DNA of 32,167 nucleotides from a phage. A model generated the notes under the pieces. It was not told where the DNA came from. It made no database searches and was given only the letters and a program-made list of their open reading frames with translations. The stretch lies in NCBI GenBank assembly GCA_021683455.1, contig GCA_021683455.1_3051.2. One strand, written 5' to 3'. Every line of letters begins with the position of its first letter. Position 1 is the stretch's first letter. The translations under genes and the position numbers were made by a program. Shown piece by piece: positions 13,775 through 22,561 of this stretch.

Positions 13775-14784
13775 TGAAAACAGTAATGAAAAGCTATTTT
13801 GGTAGTCATCTTTATGGAACTTCTACTCCAGAATCTGATGTAGATTTTAAAGAAATCTTTGTTCCTCCTGCTCGCGATATTCTTATCGGAAATGTTAAAG
13901 AGCACATGAGTAAAAACACTAACAACACATCATCTAAAAACACTAAAGATGATATTGACCATGAACTATACAGTCTTAAGTATTTCTTTAAATTAGCAGC
14001 AGATGGTGAAACTGTAGCATTGGATATGCTTCACACTCCACCTGAACTAGTGGTTAAATCTGATTTGCCTGATGTGTGGAAGTTTATTCAAGACAACCGT
14101 TCTCGTTTTTATACGACTAACATGAAATCCTATTTAGGATATGTTCGCAAGCAAGCTTCTAAATACGGTGTCAAGGGTTCTCGTTTGGCTGCATTACGCG
14201 ATGTATTGAAAGTAGTTAATCAAATCCCTGACCAGTGGGTCGACTATCAAGAAGGAATCCCTGATAGACTTCGTCGTACTAAGGTAGAAGATATTAAACA
14301 CAGACTCCCTGAAAACGAATTCTGTGAATGGGTGTTCCATAATCACGAGAAAACAGGCCCGCAAACGTTCTACACTGTGTTGGGTCGTAAATATCAGACA
14401 ACACTTTCTCTTATTGAGCTTAAGCAGTCACTGAACAAATTAGATGCTGAATATGGTGAACGTGCTCGTAAAGCCGAAGCTAATGAAGGTATTGATTGGA
14501 AAGCTCTGAGTCATGCTTGTCGTGGTGGACTTCAACTATTGGAAATTTACAAAACTGGTGACTTGATTTATCCACTCCAAGATGCTCCATTTATTCTCGA
14601 CGTGAAGTTGGGTAAGCATCCATTTAAAACGGTCCAAGAGTTTTTGGAAGATGTGGTCGATCAAGTAGAAGCAGCATCTATTGAAGCTTCTAAGAATGGT
14701 ATGCAGCAAAAAGTTGACATGAGTTTCTGGGATGACTTCCTTGAGAAGGTCTATCTTGAAAACCACCGAAGTTATTATAAATGA
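13771..14784 (+). CDS. Pol-beta-fold nucleotidyltransferase-like protein (nrdC.11-position ORF)
   Basis: N-terminal YFGSHLYGTSTPESDVDF matches the hG[GS]x9-13-DhD nucleotidyltransferase signature; 337 aa; followed by intrinsic terminator. Confidence 0.6.
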   Translation: MMKTVMKSYFGSHLYGTSTPESDVDFKEIFVPPARDILIGNVKEHMSKNTNNTSSKNTKDDIDHELYSLKYFFKLAADGETVALDMLHTPPELVVKSDLPDVWKFIQDNRSRFYTTNMKSYLGYVRKQASKYGVKGSRLAALRDVLKVVNQIPDQWVDYQEGIPDRLRRTKVEDIKHRLPENEFCEWVFHNHEKTGPQTFYTVLGRKYQTTLSLIELKQSLNKLDAEYGERARKAEANEGIDWKALSHACRGGLQLLEIYKTGDLIYPLQDAPFILDVKLGKHPFKTVQEFLEDVVDQVEAASIEASKNGMQQKVDMSFWDDFLEKVYLENHRSYYK

Positions 14785-14786
14785 TA

Positions 14787-14810
14787 GGGAGCCTTCGGGC
14801 TCCCTTTTTT
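14787..14810 (+). terminator. intrinsic terminator (GGGAGCC-TTCG-GGCTCCC + TTTTTT)
   Basis: 7-bp GC-rich stem, UUCG loop, T6. Confidence 0.85.
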
Positions 14811-14835
14811 ATTTCAAAAATTTTTTCACAAAACG

Positions 14836-14865
14836 GTTTACAAACATAAGGCTTTATGGTATTAT
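14836..14865 (+). promoter_or_regulatory. early promoter (GTTTAC 14836-14841; TGGTATTAT 14857-14865)
   Basis: Directly follows terminator 14787-14810. Confidence 0.75.
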
Positions 14866-14888
14866 ACAACTATCAACTACTGATACAG
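14857..14888 (+). repeat. 32-nt early promoter -10/leader cassette, copy 2
   Basis: 31/32 identical to 14-45 by eye. Confidence 0.85.
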
Positions 14889-14902
14889 ATTTGGAGAATA
14901 AA

Positions 14903-15871
14903 ATGAAAACTGTAACTATCAATAAGGGTATCTACTTCGGTAAAGAAATCTCTGGAACTTTTGAGCTCTTAGGCGAATGGTTCCCAGATAATGCTCCGGT
15001 AGATGCACAAGGAGATGGTAAAGTTTTTGTTGAAATTGACGGTAAACGTCGCGGTGTTTGGGTTTACAAATCAGACATTTCATATGATGGTGTAAAAGTT
15101 GAAGAAGTTAAAGAATCGTATGAAGATATGAAAACCCGCATTAATAAAAGATTTAATGTTATGGGAATGATGACGAATGGTATTATTAACGGAAACATTC
15201 GTTCATTAATTATCTCTGGTGCAGCAGGTATTGGTAAAACGTATTCTTTAGATAAAGCTTTAAATAAAGCAAATGATATTGGATACATTGAATATAAAAG
15301 CATTAACGGTAAAATCTCCGGTATCGGTCTTTATGAGCAGCTTTGGAATAATCGTGAAGAGAATTCTGTCCTTTTGATTGATGATGTGGATGTTTTCTCT
15401 GATATGGATATTCTTAATCTTCTAAAAGCCGCTCTGGACACTGGAGAGACCCGTAAAGTCTGCTGGAGCACTGCATCTTCTTACTTAGAAGAAAAAGGCA
15501 TTGAGCGTGAGTTTGAATTTAAAGGAACGATTGTTTTTATCACAAACGTTGACATTGACCGCGAATTAGACCGTGGTACTAAACTTGCTCCACATTTACA
15601 AGCATTAGTGTCCCGCTCAGTTTATTTGGATTTGGGTGTTCACACTAATGAAGAAATTATGGTCAGGGTTGAAGATGTTATTCTTTCAACTGACATGATG
15701 CAAAAGCGCGGTCTTTCTGATGAAGAAACTTATAAAGCATTATCATGGATGAAAGTCAATGTTAATCGTTTACGCAATGTTTCACTGCGTACTGCTCTTT
15801 ATCTTGCTGACTTTATTATGACCGACAAAAACGGTTGGGAAGAAATCGCTGAGGTTACTCTTCTGAAATAA
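14903..15871 (+). CDS. AAA+-like ATPase (nrdC.10-position ORF)
   Basis: Walker A SGAAGIGKT, Walker B VLLIDDVD, sensor-1-like FITN; first ATG after early promoter; track frame 14732 crosses terminator and promoter. Confidence 0.6.
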   Translation: MKTVTINKGIYFGKEISGTFELLGEWFPDNAPVDAQGDGKVFVEIDGKRRGVWVYKSDISYDGVKVEEVKESYEDMKTRINKRFNVMGMMTNGIINGNIRSLIISGAAGIGKTYSLDKALNKANDIGYIEYKSINGKISGIGLYEQLWNNREENSVLLIDDVDVFSDMDILNLLKAALDTGETRKVCWSTASSYLEEKGIEREFEFKGTIVFITNVDIDRELDRGTKLAPHLQALVSRSVYLDLGVHTNEEIMVRVEDVILSTDMMQKRGLSDEETYKALSWMKVNVNRLRNVSLRTALYLADFIMTDKNGWEEIAEVTLLK

Positions 15872-15972: not shown

Positions 15973-16275
15973 ATGTTATACTCAAAGGCTCGTGAAATTT
16001 ATGAAACTAAAATTAAAGACGCGGTTCATCAGTTCGCAACGACAATGCGTTGGACAAATGACTGGGAATACTCCAAGAATCATAAGAAGCCCTTGGTGAC
16101 AAGAAAGGCTCATATGTTAGTGTTAATAGACCGTGAGCAGATTAAAGCCCGAGAAGCCCTCCAGAATCATAAAAAGGCTGCCTTTGAATGGTTTATGGAT
16201 AACACTGCTCCTGAGACTAAGAAAGCGGTCAGCGCATGGTTCAGTGGAAAAAATTGTGAAAGAAGTTTCTTTTAG
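15973..16275 (+). CDS. hypothetical basic protein
   Basis: GGAGG SD then ATG 15973; 100 aa. Confidence 0.5.
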   Translation: MLYSKAREIYETKIKDAVHQFATTMRWTNDWEYSKNHKKPLVTRKAHMLVLIDREQIKAREALQNHKKAAFEWFMDNTAPETKKAVSAWFSGKNCERSFF

Positions 16276-16277
16276 TT

Positions 16278-16308
16278 GTTTACAAGACTGTTCCTCTGTG
16301 GTACTATA
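16278..16308 (+). promoter_or_regulatory. early promoter (GTTTAC 16278-16283; TGGTACTAT 16299-16308)
   Basis: Upstream of ATG 16336. Confidence 0.65.
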
Positions 16309-16322
16309 CAACTATCAACTAC
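16299..16322 (+). repeat. early promoter -10/leader cassette, copy 3 (24 nt)
   Basis: Identical to first 24 nt of copy 1, then diverges into GGAGG SD. Confidence 0.8.
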
Positions 16323-16335
16323 GGAGGAACAGAAA

Positions 16336-16863
16336 ATGAATGCTAAAGATATTTTCAACCTGGTAAATTACAACGATGGTAAATTTAAATCTGAAGCACA
16401 AAGCAAGTTCTTTAATGACATCTCAATCGGAGGTGAAATCACTGTTGATGGAGGACAAATTTACAAATCCCGTTGGAATTGGATCGTTATTATTGATGAA
16501 ATTGGTATTGTAGAAATTTACAAAAATACGAATAAAAATCGTACATTACACTGGTCTCGTGATACTAACGAACAGTACAAAAAGGATAAAGCATCTAAAT
16601 TATCTCGTGTAACTCAAGAAGATATTGAGTTCATCAAGAAAGATATTTTAATGTATGATAACTTAATTGCTGAAGAGCAAGCTGTTATTGATAAATTTGA
16701 TGAGATTAAAGCTTCTCGTGAAATTCCTGATTTTATGAAAGAATCAGTAAATGAACGATACACTCTCATTTCAGAGCGTATTGAAACTTACAAAAAGCAA
16801 AGAGCTGAACGCCAGAACACTCTTCGGAAATTTGAAGAACGGTTAAAGACGGTACTCGCATAA
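16336..16863 (+). CDS. hypothetical protein
   Basis: GGAGG SD then ATG 16336, after early promoter; 175 aa. Confidence 0.55.
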   Translation: MNAKDIFNLVNYNDGKFKSEAQSKFFNDISIGGEITVDGGQIYKSRWNWIVIIDEIGIVEIYKNTNKNRTLHWSRDTNEQYKKDKASKLSRVTQEDIEFIKKDILMYDNLIAEEQAVIDKFDEIKASREIPDFMKESVNERYTLISERIETYKKQRAERQNTLRKFEERLKTVLA

Positions 16864-16865
16864 CC

Positions 16866-16889
16866 GCTTTATACCAAGGATGGTATAAT
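16866..16889 (+). promoter_or_regulatory. middle-promoter-like element (MotA-box-like GCTTTA 16866-16871, 12 nt, TATAAT 16884-16889)
   Basis: Matches T4 middle promoter geometry; box lacks leading T. Confidence 0.45.
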
Positions 16890-16918
16890 GGTTCTAAGCC
16901 CTTTTAATTGAGATTATT

Positions 16919-17320
16919 ATGAAACGGTTGATAATTAAAAGATTGAATTTATTGATATGTTGTTTATGTGTAGTAGTTGCATATGGTTATTACGCAATTA
17001 ATGATTATATGCATTATAAAGATTATGATGTTACTGTAGTTAATACCATTACAGGAACACAAGGAAAGGGGTCTAGTTTATCGTTTATTGCCGTATATGA
17101 ACTCAAAGACGGTTATAGATTTAGCGAATATATTTCGCCAGAGATGTATTCTTCAATAGAAAAAGGTGATAATATTACTGTAAGTTTACGTCCTTTCGAC
17201 GTAAAACAGACATTGTTTGATAATATTATTTGGTTCTTTGGAATGGCATTAGTTCAATCTATATGTGGTACTTATATAGTCTGTTCAATCTTATTCCGCG
17301 TAATTGGTAAAATTGAGTGA
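16919..17320 (+). CDS. membrane protein
   Basis: Hydrophobic helices at N- and C-terminus. Confidence 0.5.
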   Translation: MKRLIIKRLNLLICCLCVVVAYGYYAINDYMHYKDYDVTVVNTITGTQGKGSSLSFIAVYELKDGYRFSEYISPEMYSSIEKGDNITVSLRPFDVKQTLFDNIIWFFGMALVQSICGTYIVCSILFRVIGKIE

Positions 17321-17327
17321 GGAAAAT

Positions 17328-18215
17328 ATGTCAGTAGTAATTAATAATGTCAATACAGTAATTAAATCTTTAGTTAATAAAAAATTGAATGAATGGACTG
17401 TACTTCGTCGTGGAGAGCCAGATAAATTTTTTCATAGATTTAACCCAACTTTGGATTTGAATGTTATTGACAGAGATGTTCATGCTGAAATTTTAGATAA
17501 ATTTAAAGTTGATATTGGATTTGGATTAGAAAAACATTTACAGCGAACAAACGGATCTGGAATGAGTTTATCTAATCGCATCATGAAAGCCCTTAATAAA
17601 ATTGGAGCATTGTCTCGTATTAACGCGAGTGAAATTCTTCGTAATTATAATAAAGGATATGACCTTTATGGTCGACTAATGCCAAAATTATCATTTGACC
17701 AAATGATTGCAGATTTGTGGGAAAATCAACGACGATTATTAGCATTAGGCGCTCGATTAGCTAAAGGTCTAGATAAACAAATGATTTTTAAGACCAATAA
17801 TACAGAAGACCTTAAATGCTTTAAATTTAGTACTCGTGGAGATGATTATTACATCAGAGCTCGCTCTACTGATTATGTCAATATGGGTCATCATCTCTGT
17901 TTAGCTTTTGAAGTTTTAAAAGAATCTGGAACATTAGAATATTCATCTGGTGCAAAATGTCCAATTGGTTCAAGTTGTATTTTAATTTATCGCCCGGATG
18001 AATCCAGTTCAACTAAATTGCCTACAAAACCTGTACCAGTTCGTAGTAACGAAAAACATTCTGAACAAATTGATTATTTTAATAAGCAAATTGAAGAGCT
18101 GAATATTTCTATTCAACAATATGACGATGAAATATTCAGACTATCTGGATTGAGTAGTAAAGCTAAATCTGAGCATGAAAAGTTAATTAAAATTGTTGAT
18201 TTACTTAAATCTTAA
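17328..18215 (+). CDS. hypothetical protein with C-terminal coiled-coil (array member 1)
   Basis: GAGGAAA SD then ATG 17328; ~250-aa body, Lys/Pro linker, ~45-aa amphipathic C-terminal helix. Confidence 0.55.
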   Translation: MSVVINNVNTVIKSLVNKKLNEWTVLRRGEPDKFFHRFNPTLDLNVIDRDVHAEILDKFKVDIGFGLEKHLQRTNGSGMSLSNRIMKALNKIGALSRINASEILRNYNKGYDLYGRLMPKLSFDQMIADLWENQRRLLALGARLAKGLDKQMIFKTNNTEDLKCFKFSTRGDDYYIRARSTDYVNMGHHLCLAFEVLKESGTLEYSSGAKCPIGSSCILIYRPDESSSTKLPTKPVPVRSNEKHSEQIDYFNKQIEELNISIQQYDDEIFRLSGLSSKAKSEHEKLIKIVDLLKS

Positions 18216-18223
18216 GGAACACT

Positions 18224-19243
18224 ATGAAAACTCGTTCTCAAATTGAAGATATGGTTCGTAATGCCAGCTATACTCGTGATGTTATGACATTTTTGTGCCA
18301 AAATAATTTAGACCCTGATAGAGTTAATAGTTCCATTCACTTTAAGTATATGAATAGCAGTGAATGGTTACGTCATTTTAGTAAAGCGGGATATATTACA
18401 CAAATGACTGCTCGTGAGCAGCTCACCGATTTCTGTAAAACTATTGATTATAAAAATCCTCTATTTGTTCAAGGCGTTGGTCAGAGTAAGGTCGATTTAT
18501 CAACAGGATTTTTTAATCCAAATCATTATCGTCTTGAATGGAGATTTATTGCTCTATTCCGTAAACAATTAAAGCAAATTTTGTCGACAGCTAGTCGATT
18601 AAAAGGTTCTGACATTAACTTAAAGAACCTGAAATTTGATGGTTATACTCTTCAGATGGAAGTAAGACCATTAAAAGAAAATAATAGAACTGCACGAATT
18701 AGCTTTAAACCTAATACAAAAAATTCTCTTTCAATTTGTGAATGCCTTAAATCACAGTTGACAGAAGCATTTAAGTATATGGATGTTGTTGCCGCTGTTC
18801 AGTCTAAGATTTTACCTCGTTTTGAACGATTTAAGTTAGATACAACATCATATGAACTTGATATGATCGTTTCATTTAAATACGATTTTTTGAGAAAGGA
18901 CGAAGTCCCGCAAGAGAAAAAGCAGGAAGTACAAGATAACTTAAATTTATCCAATTACTTATCAAACGATCCTAAATTTTGGATGTATAGTTCAGGTAAT
19001 AATGATGCATGGAAATTCAATAAAGTGAATTTTCTTCCTGTTGAAAATCCGAGTCTTAAACCTGTTGAAAAATGGCACGCGGATGCGATTGAGAAGTCTA
19101 TCAAGGCAGTAGATGATGAACTCGTTAAAGCGACCAATGAAGTGCTAGAAGCTGAAAAGATGCTAGAAAAAGCACAAGAAAAAGTCAAAAATCTTACGAA
19201 GCAACGTTCTAAACTGAACAATGCACTAAATGCACTAAACTAG
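18224..19243 (+). CDS. hypothetical protein with C-terminal coiled-coil (array member 2)
   Basis: AAGGAA SD; 339 aa; C-terminal heptad-like helix. Confidence 0.6.
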   Translation: MKTRSQIEDMVRNASYTRDVMTFLCQNNLDPDRVNSSIHFKYMNSSEWLRHFSKAGYITQMTAREQLTDFCKTIDYKNPLFVQGVGQSKVDLSTGFFNPNHYRLEWRFIALFRKQLKQILSTASRLKGSDINLKNLKFDGYTLQMEVRPLKENNRTARISFKPNTKNSLSICECLKSQLTEAFKYMDVVAAVQSKILPRFERFKLDTTSYELDMIVSFKYDFLRKDEVPQEKKQEVQDNLNLSNYLSNDPKFWMYSSGNNDAWKFNKVNFLPVENPSLKPVEKWHADAIEKSIKAVDDELVKATNEVLEAEKMLEKAQEKVKNLTKQRSKLNNALNALN

Positions 19244-19272
19244 TTTACTTCGCCACAAGGATGTGGTATAAT
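19243..19272 (+). promoter_or_regulatory. early promoter (GTTTAC 19243-19248; TGGTATAAT 19264-19272)
   Basis: 18-nt spacing. Confidence 0.75.
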
Positions 19273-19300
19273 GTTCTTACTTTCTAATGAGGAGATTAAT

Positions 19301-20302
19301 ATGACTCGTAACGAATATATCAAATCATTCAATAGCGTTATTGATGATAAAGTTAAACCTATGTCTAGTAAGAATAGTGTGATTTTTATTATCAATCAAT
19401 GGCTCAATAATACTGATGCAAGTATTGTTTCTTCCGGCAAATTTATTCATGAAGTTCGTGAAATTTCTAGTCGTACAGATAAAGATGACATTAAGAAAAC
19501 CTTTAAAGGGTCTCGTCTTCTTTCATACTTAGTCAACAGAGATATTCTTAGTAAATTTGGGAAAGAAATTAAACGAACTAAAGATGTAGTAGGATATAAT
19601 TGGTTCGGTGATGTTAATTCTTATCATCTTAATAATAAAGAAGACCCTGAGAATATTTTTACTCGTCGTTGGATTAGTAATTTCAGACTTTTCAAAGGAC
19701 AAATTCTAAAATCAGCTTCTAAATTATGTTATGGCGATTATCGTCAAATTCATCCTTTGGCTTCTGATATGATTATCATAAAAGAATATGAACTTGATAA
19801 AAATAAAGTAGCTATTTTTGTGAATTATGAATTTTTTACACCAGAAGCTAACCAAAAGAATATTAATAAATTTTTCTCAATTGCTAGCACTATAACTCAT
19901 CAATTAGAGACGGCTTTGGATTGTATGGAAACTGTAAAAAGTATTCATACATATCCTTTCAAAAATATTGGTGGTTGGGAAGGATATAAAATTGTAATTA
20001 GTCTTCGTGAAGTGAAATGTGCTTATTCACTAACTGATAAAGAAATTTACCAACAAAAATGCGAAGAAATTGTGAATACTCCTAAAGAAGAAACTACCCT
20101 TGAGGAACTAATGGATAATCTTGACGATTCACTTGAACCGGTAGAAATTCGTCCAGAAGTTGTTGCACTAGAAAAAGCTTATAAAGAAGTTCTAGAAATT
20201 TCTAATAAAGCGCAGAAAGAATATGAGAAGGCTAAAAAGATTTGGGAAGAATCTGTTAATCGCTTGGATCGTCTTGAACAAGCTTTACAGTTAATTAAGT
20301 AA
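19301..20302 (+). CDS. hypothetical protein with C-terminal coiled-coil (array member 3)
   Basis: GAGGAG SD then ATG 19301; early promoter upstream; 333 aa. Confidence 0.6.
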   Translation: MTRNEYIKSFNSVIDDKVKPMSSKNSVIFIINQWLNNTDASIVSSGKFIHEVREISSRTDKDDIKKTFKGSRLLSYLVNRDILSKFGKEIKRTKDVVGYNWFGDVNSYHLNNKEDPENIFTRRWISNFRLFKGQILKSASKLCYGDYRQIHPLASDMIIIKEYELDKNKVAIFVNYEFFTPEANQKNINKFFSIASTITHQLETALDCMETVKSIHTYPFKNIGGWEGYKIVISLREVKCAYSLTDKEIYQQKCEEIVNTPKEETTLEELMDNLDDSLEPVEIRPEVVALEKAYKEVLEISNKAQKEYEKAKKIWEESVNRLDRLEQALQLIK

Positions 20303-20353
20303 TTTAAAGCCAAGGATGGCTCGGAGTATAAATCATTAACAAGTGAGAAGAAC

Positions 20354-21280
20354 ATGAAAACTCGTAAACATTATATTGATTATTTTGACAGTCTTATTAC
20401 TAAACATCGTAATTATCAGATCGGACACAGAGCAGTAATCAATAATATTCTTCGTGATTTCCTTCAATATGTTGGCCAGGAAAATCATATCTGTAAAGAT
20501 ACTCAAAACGCTTATTCTCATTCGTTAGGCAATTTGCTCGAGTGGTTCAAACGTTCCCGATTACTATCTTCTGTGATAGCTGTTAATAATGTTAAAAAAT
20601 TTATGTATCCGAGCTACATTAAGACTAATGTAACAAATGCTAGTGTTGTTACATTTAATATTATTAACGACGTGAAAAGAACTTATTTAGAAGAATGGTT
20701 TTCTAAAGATAGTAAAGAAAAATTTGCCAGTGAATTTTCACACGAATTCAATAATAACGTGAATATGCTTTTTAAGCATTCTCGTAGACTGTTTTGTCAT
20801 GGTGATAATCGTACTATTAATGTGAATGTAAAAGACTGGGTTACGGCTAAATTCACTCCATCGTCCCAGAATGGACAATTTGATTTGTCAATTATCATTT
20901 GTGCTCCGCATGAGATATATAAAAATCTTCCGTATATGAAACCACGCGAAGCTAATAAACACAATGAAACTATTAGTTCTTTGTCTTATAATTTGCATGA
21001 GTTATTATCTAATATGGATGTAGTTAAATCATTTGATGATAATACGAATTATGGTCTTTCACTGTTTGAAACTAAATTTGTTATTAAGTTAAAGGACCCT
21101 AGTGAATTTAAATCTGCACCAAAACCCAATCATGGGAATGATACTATGAAAGAAGAACGTGAATATCTCAATGCCCGTTTGATTGAAGTTGAAAAACAAA
21201 TTGAAGAGCATACTAAAGTTCTTAAGGCTTTAACCGCCAAAGCAAATGGTTTACGTAATGCTATTGAGGTATTGAAATGA
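20354..21280 (+). CDS. hypothetical protein with C-terminal coiled-coil (array member 4)
   Basis: GTGAGAAGAA then ATG 20354; 308 aa. Confidence 0.6.
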   Translation: MKTRKHYIDYFDSLITKHRNYQIGHRAVINNILRDFLQYVGQENHICKDTQNAYSHSLGNLLEWFKRSRLLSSVIAVNNVKKFMYPSYIKTNVTNASVVTFNIINDVKRTYLEEWFSKDSKEKFASEFSHEFNNNVNMLFKHSRRLFCHGDNRTINVNVKDWVTAKFTPSSQNGQFDLSIIICAPHEIYKNLPYMKPREANKHNETISSLSYNLHELLSNMDVVKSFDDNTNYGLSLFETKFVIKLKDPSEFKSAPKPNHGNDTMKEEREYLNARLIEVEKQIEEHTKVLKALTAKANGLRNAIEVLK

Positions 21281-21666
21281 AAAAGCGTTTATTAGAAGAC
21301 ATTGCAGCTTCAAGTAATTCCAGTCTAATTAAAATTATTATGGCTGGTGAAGAAGACGATTTGGAAATGCGTGGAAAGATTCACGGCTGCGACGATTTAG
21401 ATTTTAAACCTCCAGCATGGGATGCTATTATGGCTATGGTTGAACGGCGTGAAAGAGCTTCTAAAAACGTTCCTAATTGCCCTGAATGCGGTACTGAACA
21501 AGTTCAATTGATTAACTGGCGTAAACCAGAGCTTGAATATAAATGCCGTCAATGTAAACATAAATTCAGTAAGCATGCTCCGGAAATGGTTAAATTGCCT
21601 GACTCTACTGAGTTCTTTAAAGAACTTGTGAGTGTTCAACCAATGCCTAATAATATTTTGGATTAA
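21277..21666 (+). CDS. zinc-ribbon protein
   Basis: ATGA overlap; CPECG...CRQCKHKF four-Cys ribbon. Confidence 0.5.
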
Positions 21667-21668
21667 AA

Positions 21669-21911
21669 ATGACCAAGCGTAAAGAATATATGGAGGCTGC
21701 TGAAAAGGCAGTCCGTGAATTAGCAATAGCTTATTATAATGAACATGGTAAATTTCCTGATAGATACAGCGTGCTTAAATCTGCTTTAACTCGTTCATAT
21801 AAAAATATGCTATCAGAAGTAAGTGATATTATATACAAACATAAAGAACAAACGGGCCAAAGTCTTGATTACGACGAGACTTTTAAACAAGTACTAGGAA
21901 TTAAGGAATAA
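21669..21911 (+). CDS. hypothetical protein
   Basis: 80-aa ORF immediately upstream of nrdC. Confidence 0.5.
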
Positions 21912-21912
21912 T

Positions 21913-22176
21913 ATGTTTAAAGTATATGGTTATGATAGCAACATCCATAAATGTGTGTATTGTGATAATGCAAAACGTCTTTTGACCGTGAAGAAACAGC
22001 CGTTTGAATTTATCAACATTATGCCGGAAAAAGGTGTTTTTGATGATGAGAAAATCGCTGAGCTTCTGACTAAACTAGGTCGTGATACTCAAATCGGCTT
22101 GACAATGCCCCAGGTATTTGCTCCTGATGGAAGTCATATTGGTGGATTTGACCAACTGCGAGAATATTTTAAATGA
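21913..22176 (+). CDS. nrdC: phage thioredoxin/glutaredoxin (ribonucleotide reductase hydrogen donor)
   Basis: 87 aa with CVYC redox motif; matches T4 thioredoxin as I recall it (MFKVYGYDSNIHKCVYCDNAKRLL...). Confidence 0.9.
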   Translation: MFKVYGYDSNIHKCVYCDNAKRLLTVKKQPFEFINIMPEKGVFDDEKIAELLTKLGRDTQIGLTMPQVFAPDGSHIGGFDQLREYFK

Positions 22177-22388
22177 TGCTCGAAGGAACTGACTATATTC
22201 ATGATTACCGCGGAAGCGCGGTATATGTAGGTGATGAAGTTGCAGTTTATTATGGGTATGGAACTTTGATGACAGCCAAGGTTATTCAAATTAAAAATAA
22301 TCGTGCTAAACTCGAAGTTTATTATTCTAATGGTGAAAAGTCTATTTCTAAGTGGAAATACGGCGATTGTATGGTTAAATTGGGGTAA
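22173..22388 (+). CDS. hypothetical protein
   Basis: ATGA overlap with nrdC stop; 71 aa. Confidence 0.5.
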   Translation: MMLEGTDYIHDYRGSAVYVGDEVAVYYGYGTLMTAKVIQIKNNRAKLEVYYSNGEKSISKWKYGDCMVKLG

Positions 22389-22390
22389 AT

Positions 22391-22561
22391 ATGATTTACG
22401 ATATTAGTGTATCAAGAACTCCGTCAATGGTTACTATTCCAGCCGAAGAACTAGATCGTCTTCAGAAAATTGAAGAACTTCTTTGGGAAATTGAATGTGC
22501 CCTGCCATCAGGACTAGAATCCTGGATTGACGATGAAGAACTTAATAAATTGCGAAATTAA
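22391..22561 (+). CDS. small hypothetical protein (56 aa)
   Basis: ATG 22391 after TGGGG; below track cutoff. Confidence 0.35.
   Translation: MIYDISVSRTPSMVTIPAEELDRLQKIEELLWEIECALPSGLESWIDDEELNKLRN

Follow-up and report, generated by a model that had tools for sequence, protein, structure and literature searches.

nrdC.6, nrdC.5, nrdC.4 and nrdC.3 of a T4-like phage: a tandem array of diverged paralogues with constrained C-terminal helices and a proposed role in anti-defence

Background

The closest described relative of the genes considered here is nrdC.5 of phage T4. Srikant, Guegler and Laub (eLife 2022, PMC9391042) reported that a T4 clone with deletions cannot plate on E. coli ECOR17, that plating is regained after deletion of the host gene dsr1, and that a plasmid supplying only T4 nrdC.5 lets the deletion mutant plate again on MG1655 carrying dsr1. 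Dsr1, which defends the host, contains a sirtuin (NAD-degrading) domain (PMC9391042), and its tetratricopeptide repeat (TPR) sensor domain, common to Avs7 and other systems, recognises phage major capsid proteins (PMC12803255, a 2026 preprint). Our literature search returned nothing on DUF7235, the Pfam family of nrdC.5, or on nrdC.5 and Dsr1 beyond PMC9391042, and nothing on the function of nrdC.3, nrdC.4 and nrdC.6, which have been carried as 'conserved hypothetical' genes since T4 was sequenced.

Here we analyse these four genes in a stretch of 32,167 nucleotides of phage DNA (GCA_021683455.1, contig GCA_021683455.1_3051.2; hereafter the window), where they lie one after another between positions 17328 and 21280. 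The four genes very probably constitute one paralogous family, and most likely an early-expressed anti-defence gene family. The genes are known and their function is partly known; their paralogy and the behaviour of their C-terminal tails appear to be undescribed in the literature searched.

Results and discussion

Identity of the four genes

Region 17000-21700 of the window is 96% identical to many genomes of Tequatrovirus, the T4-like type to which this phage belongs, and the same open reading frames (ORFs) are annotated there in T4 style as nrdC.3-nrdC.6; the matching stretch spans 4.7 kb, and the Tequatrovirus genomes concerned carry the annotations nrdC.2-nrdC.6. From nrdC.7 to nrdC.2 the window has its genes in the same order as T4 (AF158101.6), and the NrdC thioredoxin gene lies downstream of the array at 21913-22176. 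By sequence, then, the four ORFs are orthologues of T4 nrdC.6, nrdC.5, nrdC.4 and nrdC.3, in that order:

17328..18215, + strand: nrdC.6 orthologue, 295 aa, PF26899 / phrog_2257 (phrog_2257 E=1e-151)
18224..19243, + strand: nrdC.5 orthologue, 339 aa, Pfam DUF7235 (PF23882) / phrog_2351 (DUF7235 E=2.7e-123)
19301..20302, + strand: nrdC.4 orthologue, 333 aa, phrog_1435 (E=3e-164)
20354..21280, + strand: nrdC.3 orthologue, 308 aa, phrog_1435 (E=3e-100)

A sequence-only reading of the window had described four consecutive plus-strand ORFs of 295, 339, 333 and 308 aa ending in DLLKS, ALNALN, ALQLIK and AIEVLK, and these coordinates, lengths and ends are all correct. It had also given each ORF its own Shine-Dalgarno sequence, which holds for the first three (GAGG/AAGGA/GAGGAG-type); the fourth has only a weaker GAGAAG.

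Over residues 1-330, window nrdC.5 shares 93.7% identity with a T4 record, and it passes the DUF7235 gathering threshold of 30 bits with 411.7 bits. The other three proteins fall outside this model (best E=0.048, in the tail only): nrdC.3 scores 13.5 bits, again in the tail only, and nrdC.6 and nrdC.4 give no match. PF26899 is a precomputed domain on relatives of nrdC.6, and both nrdC.4 and nrdC.3 match phrog_1435 over the whole profile. Sequence searches of the PDB gave nothing significant for nrdC.5, the nrdC.6 family or the nrdC.4/nrdC.3 family, searches of NCBIfam and PADLOC gave no meaningful matches, and an Rfam scan of both strands over 16000-22500 found nothing.

The bodies of the four proteins are homologous

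The N-terminal bodies, which had looked unrelated by eye, are homologous over most of their length, as judged by profile-profile comparison, cross-matches between PHROG families, secondary-structure order and common Foldseek neighbours. nrdC.4 and nrdC.3 are linked by BLASTP (25% identity over 163 body residues, E=1.5e-5) and by hhalign (97.9%), and nrdC.5 is linked to nrdC.4 by hhalign at 86.6% (P=4.5e-6, 172 body columns), with alignments enriched by Gaprivervirus, Dhakavirus and Mosigvirus orthologues and by sequences from an exhaustive search. Jiaodavirus Mineola and Kanagawavirus CIP9, each with one identified member of the family, supply intermediates: the merged nrdC.5 and Mineola profile reaches the nrdC.4 and nrdC.3 profile at 95.5% (P=1.4e-8), and the merged nrdC.6 and CIP9 profile reaches it at 84% (P=7.6e-6, 110 body columns). 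Observed hhalign scores are 39-67, against 13-15 +- 2-3 for column-shuffled controls.

The CIP9 protein (phrog_26858) is related both to the nrdC.6 family (hhalign 85%, P=6e-6; phrog_2257 E=3.5e-6) and to the nrdC.5 family (phrog_2351 E=9e-8; DUF7235 29.4 bits), and phrog_26858 is in turn matched by window nrdC.4 (residues 61-324) and, in the tail, by window nrdC.5. The Mineola protein aligns with the nrdC.5 family at 84% (P=8e-6) over 252 columns. Two motifs that are visible by eye align in the bodies, K-x-G-x-L-S ... L-x-x-F and a helix with L-L-x-x-A-x-R-L-x-x-G-x-D. They were placed from the hhalign alignments, and the second also corresponds to a helix pair in both AlphaFold2 models:

17583..17654, + strand: body motif 1 of nrdC.6 (MKALNKIGALSRINASEILRNYNK)
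18365-18439, 19490-19564 and 20534-20608: equivalents of motif 1 in nrdC.5, nrdC.4 and nrdC.3, respectively
17697..17774, + strand: body motif 2 of nrdC.6 (helix ..NQRRLLALGARLAKGLD)
18539-18613, 19664-19741 and 20729-20809: equivalents of motif 2 in nrdC.5, nrdC.4 and nrdC.3, respectively

The array thus arose when a Tevenvirinae-specific gene was duplicated in tandem long ago, as a whole and with its tail, and not through module shuffling.

Predicted structures

AlphaFold2 models were built for nrdC.6 and nrdC.5 only, from family-only alignments. The nrdC.6 model has a predicted local distance difference test score (pLDDT) of 75.8 and ends in helices 245-272 and 277-294, preceded by a segment with pLDDT <50 at residues 226-241; the nrdC.5 model has a pLDDT of 65.5 and ends in a single helix, 280-338, preceded by such a segment at residues 225-276. 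Both models have the same order of elements, namely two helix pairs, a beta hairpin, a helix, a second beta hairpin, a low-confidence linker and a terminal helix, and the hhalign mapping of nrdC.6 residues 87-145 onto nrdC.5 residues 50-127 coincides with equivalent helix pairs of the models.

In Foldseek searches of BFVD the two models reach the same proteins with probability 1.0 and roughly full-length alignments, among them the CIP9-type protein A0A7G3KGN9 of phage IME523 (E=2e-6 and 6e-7 for the two models), Mineola A0A2Z4QAR2 (E=2e-3 and 4e-6) and PM2 A0A0A0PZG4 (E=2e-6 and 9e-5). More matches come from T4-like phages of Acinetobacter, Yersinia, Serratia, Erwinia, Citrobacter and Aeromonas. 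The fold evidence for one superfamily, as far as these models go, is supportive, not conclusive. The architecture predicted to be common to all members would have N-terminal helices, then two helix pairs, both conserved, a unit of beta hairpin, helix and beta hairpin, and the low-confidence linker, and would end in a heptad-repeat helix of ~50 residues.

The C-terminal heptad tails

The C-terminal heptad helix noticed in the sequence-only reading is real: each protein ends in one unbroken register of 48-56 residues that runs to the C-terminus, with 0.79-0.94 of the a/d positions hydrophobic; a coiled-coil oligomerisation domain calls for a hydrophobic a/d core over at least four heptads. Counted from the C-terminus the register is identical in all four, the last Lys/Asn being position e. 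The best 28-residue heptad window exceeded that of the shuffled sequence in 200/200 trials for nrdC.6 and nrdC.5, 198/200 for nrdC.4 and 195/200 for nrdC.3, and in nrdC.4 this window lies in the body (residues 185-212), not in the tail. A Lys/Pro-rich linker precedes the helix in nrdC.6, nrdC.5 and nrdC.3 as had been claimed; that of nrdC.4 is acidic (E/D/T-rich). The features of the C-terminal parts are as follows:

17997..18056, + strand: Pro/Lys/Ser-rich linker of nrdC.6 (pLDDT <50, as above)
18057..18212, + strand: C-terminal heptad helix of nrdC.6, 52 aa, predicted helix-break-helix around an invariant RLxGL
18896..19072, + strand: long low-confidence linker of nrdC.5 (pLDDT <50, as above)
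19073..19240, + strand: C-terminal heptad helix of nrdC.5, 56 aa, a/d 0.94 hydrophobic, one helix in the model
20150..20299, + strand: C-terminal heptad helix of nrdC.4, 50 aa (heptad analysis)
21134..21277, + strand: C-terminal heptad helix of nrdC.3, 48 aa (heptad analysis)

The idea that these helices are a module shared by the four proteins did not survive at the residue level. Family profiles of the last 48 residues were compared without gaps, anchored at the C-terminal L..AL..L motif, against 5000 column permutations within the same heptad position. The tails of the four window families were no more alike than such heptad-matched permuted helices (z=0.1-2.1, falling to -1.4 to 1.1 without the nine anchoring residues). 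Since whole heptads are inserted or deleted in places, this test errs on the conservative side. DNA repeats among the tails are only short (<=23 nt, 74-100% identity), and therefore no DNA-level module is common to them. A tail was already present in the family ancestor: the tail of the single-copy CIP9 protein is related to those of both nrdC.6 (z=4.7) and nrdC.5 (z=2.9).

Within each family the tail is the best conserved and most constrained part of the protein, so that a fast-diverging body is combined with a slowly changing heptad helix. Identities to relatives are:

nrdC.6 family: tail 54-67%, body 31-42%
nrdC.4 family: tail 60-68%, body 43-52%
nrdC.3 family: tail 70-81%, body 56-62%
P0193, the most distant nrdC.4 relative: tail 64%, body 29%

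What the tail does can be approached through the pattern of this conservation. In three of the four families it is graded a,d > e,g > b,c,f, as the core of a coiled coil would give, and we consider it rather probable that the tail acts as an oligomerisation element. A less likely alternative is that it is a docking helix, fitted family by family to a constant hub partner of phage or host rather than to itself. This would account for the outer positions b, c and f, which are as conserved as the body average or more (0.62-0.88 against 0.57-0.79), for the final 24 residues in nrdC.4, a part of the tail that is near-invariant across relatives with bodies only 29-53% identical, and for the invariant RLxGL break of nrdC.6, which suggests a helical hairpin and not a simple coiled coil. 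The grading of core over outer positions speaks against docking, and no candidate partner was found.

Two reference sequences deviate at the tail. The T4 reference nrdC.6 (L028, AF158101.6 about 1530-1600, corresponding to window about 18104) is 275 aa long: one nucleotide present in the window is missing from it (CTGAATATT to CTG-ATATT), and the reading frame changes where the coiled coil begins. An intact tail, ISIQQYDDEIFRLSGLSSKAKSEREKLIKIVDLLKS, is still encoded in the +1 frame. Either the laboratory T4 gene is truncated or the reference contains an error. The reference protein for nrdC.5 of RB69 (L018:4973-5875) has a non-helical end, ...NWTRHKLSSVMLKVL. Other Mosigvirus copies (P0168 and others) have a normal heptad end, ...LQLQYSKLFNAMNALKS, and since they carry the tail we dropped the notion of a tail-less RB69 protein and regard its reference as probably affected by a frameshift or sequencing error.

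Distribution and evolution

By sequence, the family is very narrow and found only in T4-like phages of enterobacteria. An exhaustive HMMER search of 1.84 billion cluster representatives with an nrdC.4 and nrdC.3 profile recovered 10 clusters only, with no cellular relatives. In the phage collection, tblastn detected nrdC.6 in 742 records, nrdC.5 in 582, nrdC.4 in 554 and nrdC.3 in 654, against 1505 for the conserved neighbour nrdC.11. Four copies are present in Tequatrovirus and three in Gaprivervirus and Dhakavirus (without nrdC.3) and in RB69 (without nrdC.4). The single members identified in CIP9 and Mineola lie directly upstream of the gene that elsewhere follows nrdC.3 or nrdC.4; in Mineola this downstream gene is annotated as T4 NrdC.2-like, the position thus being syntenic and adjoining nrdC.2. 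A search for related loci in IMG/VR with the Mineola protein returned nothing.

Within Tequatrovirus, the ratio of nonsynonymous to synonymous substitution rates (dN/dS) is 0.21-0.35 for nrdC.5, nrdC.4 and nrdC.3 and 0.12 for nrdC.6, compared with 0.01-0.09 for nrdC.11, nrdC.10, nrdC.9, nrdC.8, nrdC.1 and nrdC. Two neighbours, nrdC.7 (0.29) and nrdC.2 (0.21), are elevated too; the four genes evolve faster than most of their neighbours.

Two deep alleles of nrdC.3 segregate in Tequatrovirus, with 62% amino acid identity and a synonymous divergence (dS) of about 0.8 (window 20354-21666 compared with loci L005-L007, L011, L020 and L001). The window carries the rarer allele, and most Tequatrovirus copies are only about 62% identical to it. 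The adjacent nrdC.2 is ~99% identical in genomes with differing nrdC.3 alleles, a pattern that points to gene-sized recombinational allele replacement. nrdC.2 itself has a 79% allele in L007. The divergence of the Mineola member (L021:15970-16950), which is ~44% identical to the copy in ~140 related Klebsiella/Raoultella phages, is another allele replacement at the locus. Natural deletions and in-frame fusions are common as well: ACG-C40 and Pinarejo carry deletions, and nrdC.4 is split in one metagenomic contig. The four genes are individually dispensable and are often lost, fused or exchanged between phages.

The anti-defence reading and its alternatives

The explanation that we favour overall, with moderate confidence, is that these diverged tandem paralogues are an anti-defence or host-range set with a self-associating or docking tail. 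Because their paralogue nrdC.5 disarms an anti-phage protein, nrdC.6, nrdC.4 and nrdC.3 are good candidates for similar roles, and we put the chance that at least one further member acts against defence at about even. In the proposed mechanism, the family would be a set of host-range or anti-defence factors in which the fast-evolving body binds a host target and the conserved, family-specific tail drives self-association or docking to a constant partner. Self-association could raise avidity for oligomeric defence proteins, and the family specificity of the tails could stop co-expressed paralogues from mixing. An elaborated form, a multigene immune-evasion family in which each body counters a different host defence sensor and the tails are mutually orthogonal self-association helices that prevent mixed, inactive oligomers, is speculative and, in our estimate, doubtful.

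Several observations weigh against the favoured explanation. The direct link between nrdC.6 and nrdC.5 is weak (hhalign P=0.005); merging nrdC.6 with CIP9 and nrdC.5 with Mineola brings it to 55% (P=1.2e-4) over 23 columns, so that part of its weight comes from intermediates and from moderately confident models (pLDDT 75.8 for nrdC.6 and 65.5 for nrdC.5). The TM-scores of the Foldseek matches are low, 0.2-0.5, which we attribute to the flexible linker. The frameshift in the T4 reference strain removes the nrdC.6 tail, which leaves two readings: the copy is a pseudogene, or the protein can do without its tail. dN/dS is <1 throughout, and therefore gives no direct sign of positive selection. Finally, the anti-defence role of nrdC.6, nrdC.4 and nrdC.3 is inferred from paralogy, location and evolutionary behaviour, and the effect of nrdC.5 on Dsr1 could be indirect.

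The last point can be developed into an explanation of its own, that the genes are one family not dedicated to anti-defence, which modulates an early host or phage process and affects Dsr1 indirectly, for instance by preventing production or exposure of the trigger. The published evidence is a complementation phenotype only, with no binding data found in the literature search; the neighbouring genes are of mixed function, and dN/dS values below 1 fit ordinary accessory genes. Presence/absence polymorphism, deep allelic replacement between conserved flanks and dispensability on laboratory hosts are, on the other hand, what host-range genes would display, and plasmid-borne nrdC.5 alone is sufficient to restore plating. 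We regard this explanation as unlikely.

Far less probable is the shuffling of modules, in which unrelated N-terminal domains would each have been fused to a mobile C-terminal coiled coil serving oligomerisation or targeting, essentially the cassette diversification proposed in the sequence-only reading. BLASTP between most of the bodies yields almost nothing, and natural chimeras do join a tail to another body (the Manna nrdC.6::nrdC.4 fusion and the foreign N-terminus on the nrdC.5 tail in P0187, both described below). However, the profiles, PHROG cross-matches, secondary-structure order and Foldseek neighbours make the bodies homologous, the tails resemble each other no more than heptad-matched permutations, their DNA repeats do not exceed 23 nt, and the chimeras are deletion junctions at microhomologies in one locus, not recurrent domain architectures. 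We therefore rejected shuffling as largely refuted by the homology of the bodies and the unlikeness of the tails. Of the two outcomes that the sequence-only reading had named as refuting it, the unlikeness of the tails was observed and the lack of a shared fold was not. Coincidence, under which the four small proteins would be unrelated and the generic K/E-rich amphipathic helix at the end of each a matter of chance, fits the lack of significant residue-level likeness among the tails but is the least probable of all and already refuted, given the homologous bodies, the same architecture, length, heptad register from the C-terminus and locus across genera, and the relation of the nrdC.6 and nrdC.5 tails to that of CIP9 (z=4.7 and 2.9; E=9e-8 to phrog_2351).

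The rearranged copies deserve a description in their own right. In Salmonella phage Manna (L001:5215-6252), residues 1-269 of nrdC.6 are fused in frame to residues 251-333 of nrdC.4; the junction, DDEI|VNTPKEE, lies within the nrdC.6 coiled coil, and nrdC.5 and most of nrdC.4 are deleted. The 803-bp contig P0187 has a foreign N-terminus of 120 aa on the last 53 residues of nrdC.5, and the 845-bp contig P0166 has nrdC.6 residues 165-267 joined to foreign sequence. P0056 is a fusion of nrdC.5 (to residue 271) with nrdC.3 (from residue 134), and in P0097 (Shigella phage Sf25) residues 176-258 of nrdC.6 are duplicated internally. In these last four, the junctions seem to stem from deletion or duplication at short microhomologies.

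Expression signals and a neighbouring gene

Promoter-like elements had been noted upstream of two of the four ORFs. A generic sigma-70 scan performs at chance in this DNA (28 sites against 28.7 expected); what stands is one site of an enriched class, upstream of nrdC.4. The pattern TTTAC-N16-19-TATAAT, which we take to be of the T4 early-promoter type, has five occurrences in the window where 0.47 would be expected by chance, all of them on the plus (coding) strand, at positions 877, 7050, 19244, 22947 and 27777, and these five sites are likely, from their sequence, to be T4-type early promoters. Every early-promoter-like match in the window shares its strand with the array. Both the 7050 and the 19244 site have TGTGGTATAAT, and the latter falls within the array:

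19244..19272, + strand: early-promoter-like site, TTTACT-N17-TATAAT, extended TGTGGTATAAT, in the 57-bp gap before nrdC.4

Upstream of the array, the longest ORF of the AAA-ATPase gene nrdC.10 (14732-15871, 379 aa) runs 53 nt over the end of nrdC.11. The alignment with the homologue in CIP9 (L022:10391-11371) begins at the Met at 14906, which is therefore probably the real start of nrdC.10.

Comparison with known systems

None of the genes is itself new, and the wider function is one that we infer; the paralogy with a gene that defeats a sirtuin-based defence makes three orphan genes specific counter-defence candidates. A body that changes fast, joined to a family-specific tail that changes slowly, also makes a convenient case in which to study how oligomeric proteins, once duplicated, escape mutual interference.

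Among described systems, T4 NrdC.5 (DUF7235), which is reported to act against Dsr1 of E. coli ECOR17, is the nearest: the second ORF of the array is its orthologue, at about 94% identity, and the other three are distant paralogues with the same architecture that nevertheless lie outside the DUF7235 model. DSAD1, with which phage SPbeta inhibits the DSR2 sirtuin defence, is likewise a phage protein that neutralises a defence protein with a SIR2-domain NADase; when compared with the window proteins, it showed no similarity of sequence or fold. The T4 dmd-tifA-adfA 'anti-TA island' (anti-toxin-antitoxin; PMC9391042) resembles the array in that its genes are early and dispensable, form a cluster in a variable genome region and, when lost, leave a narrower host range; it differs in that its inhibitors are unrelated to each other, whereas the neighbours in the window are paralogues of one another. 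The tails, for their part, compare with canonical coiled-coil oligomerisation domains in having 7-8 unbroken heptads with hydrophobic a/d positions and, in three of the four families, the core positions as the most conserved; they depart from them in the conserved Gly break of the nrdC.6 tail and in the unusual conservation of the outer positions.

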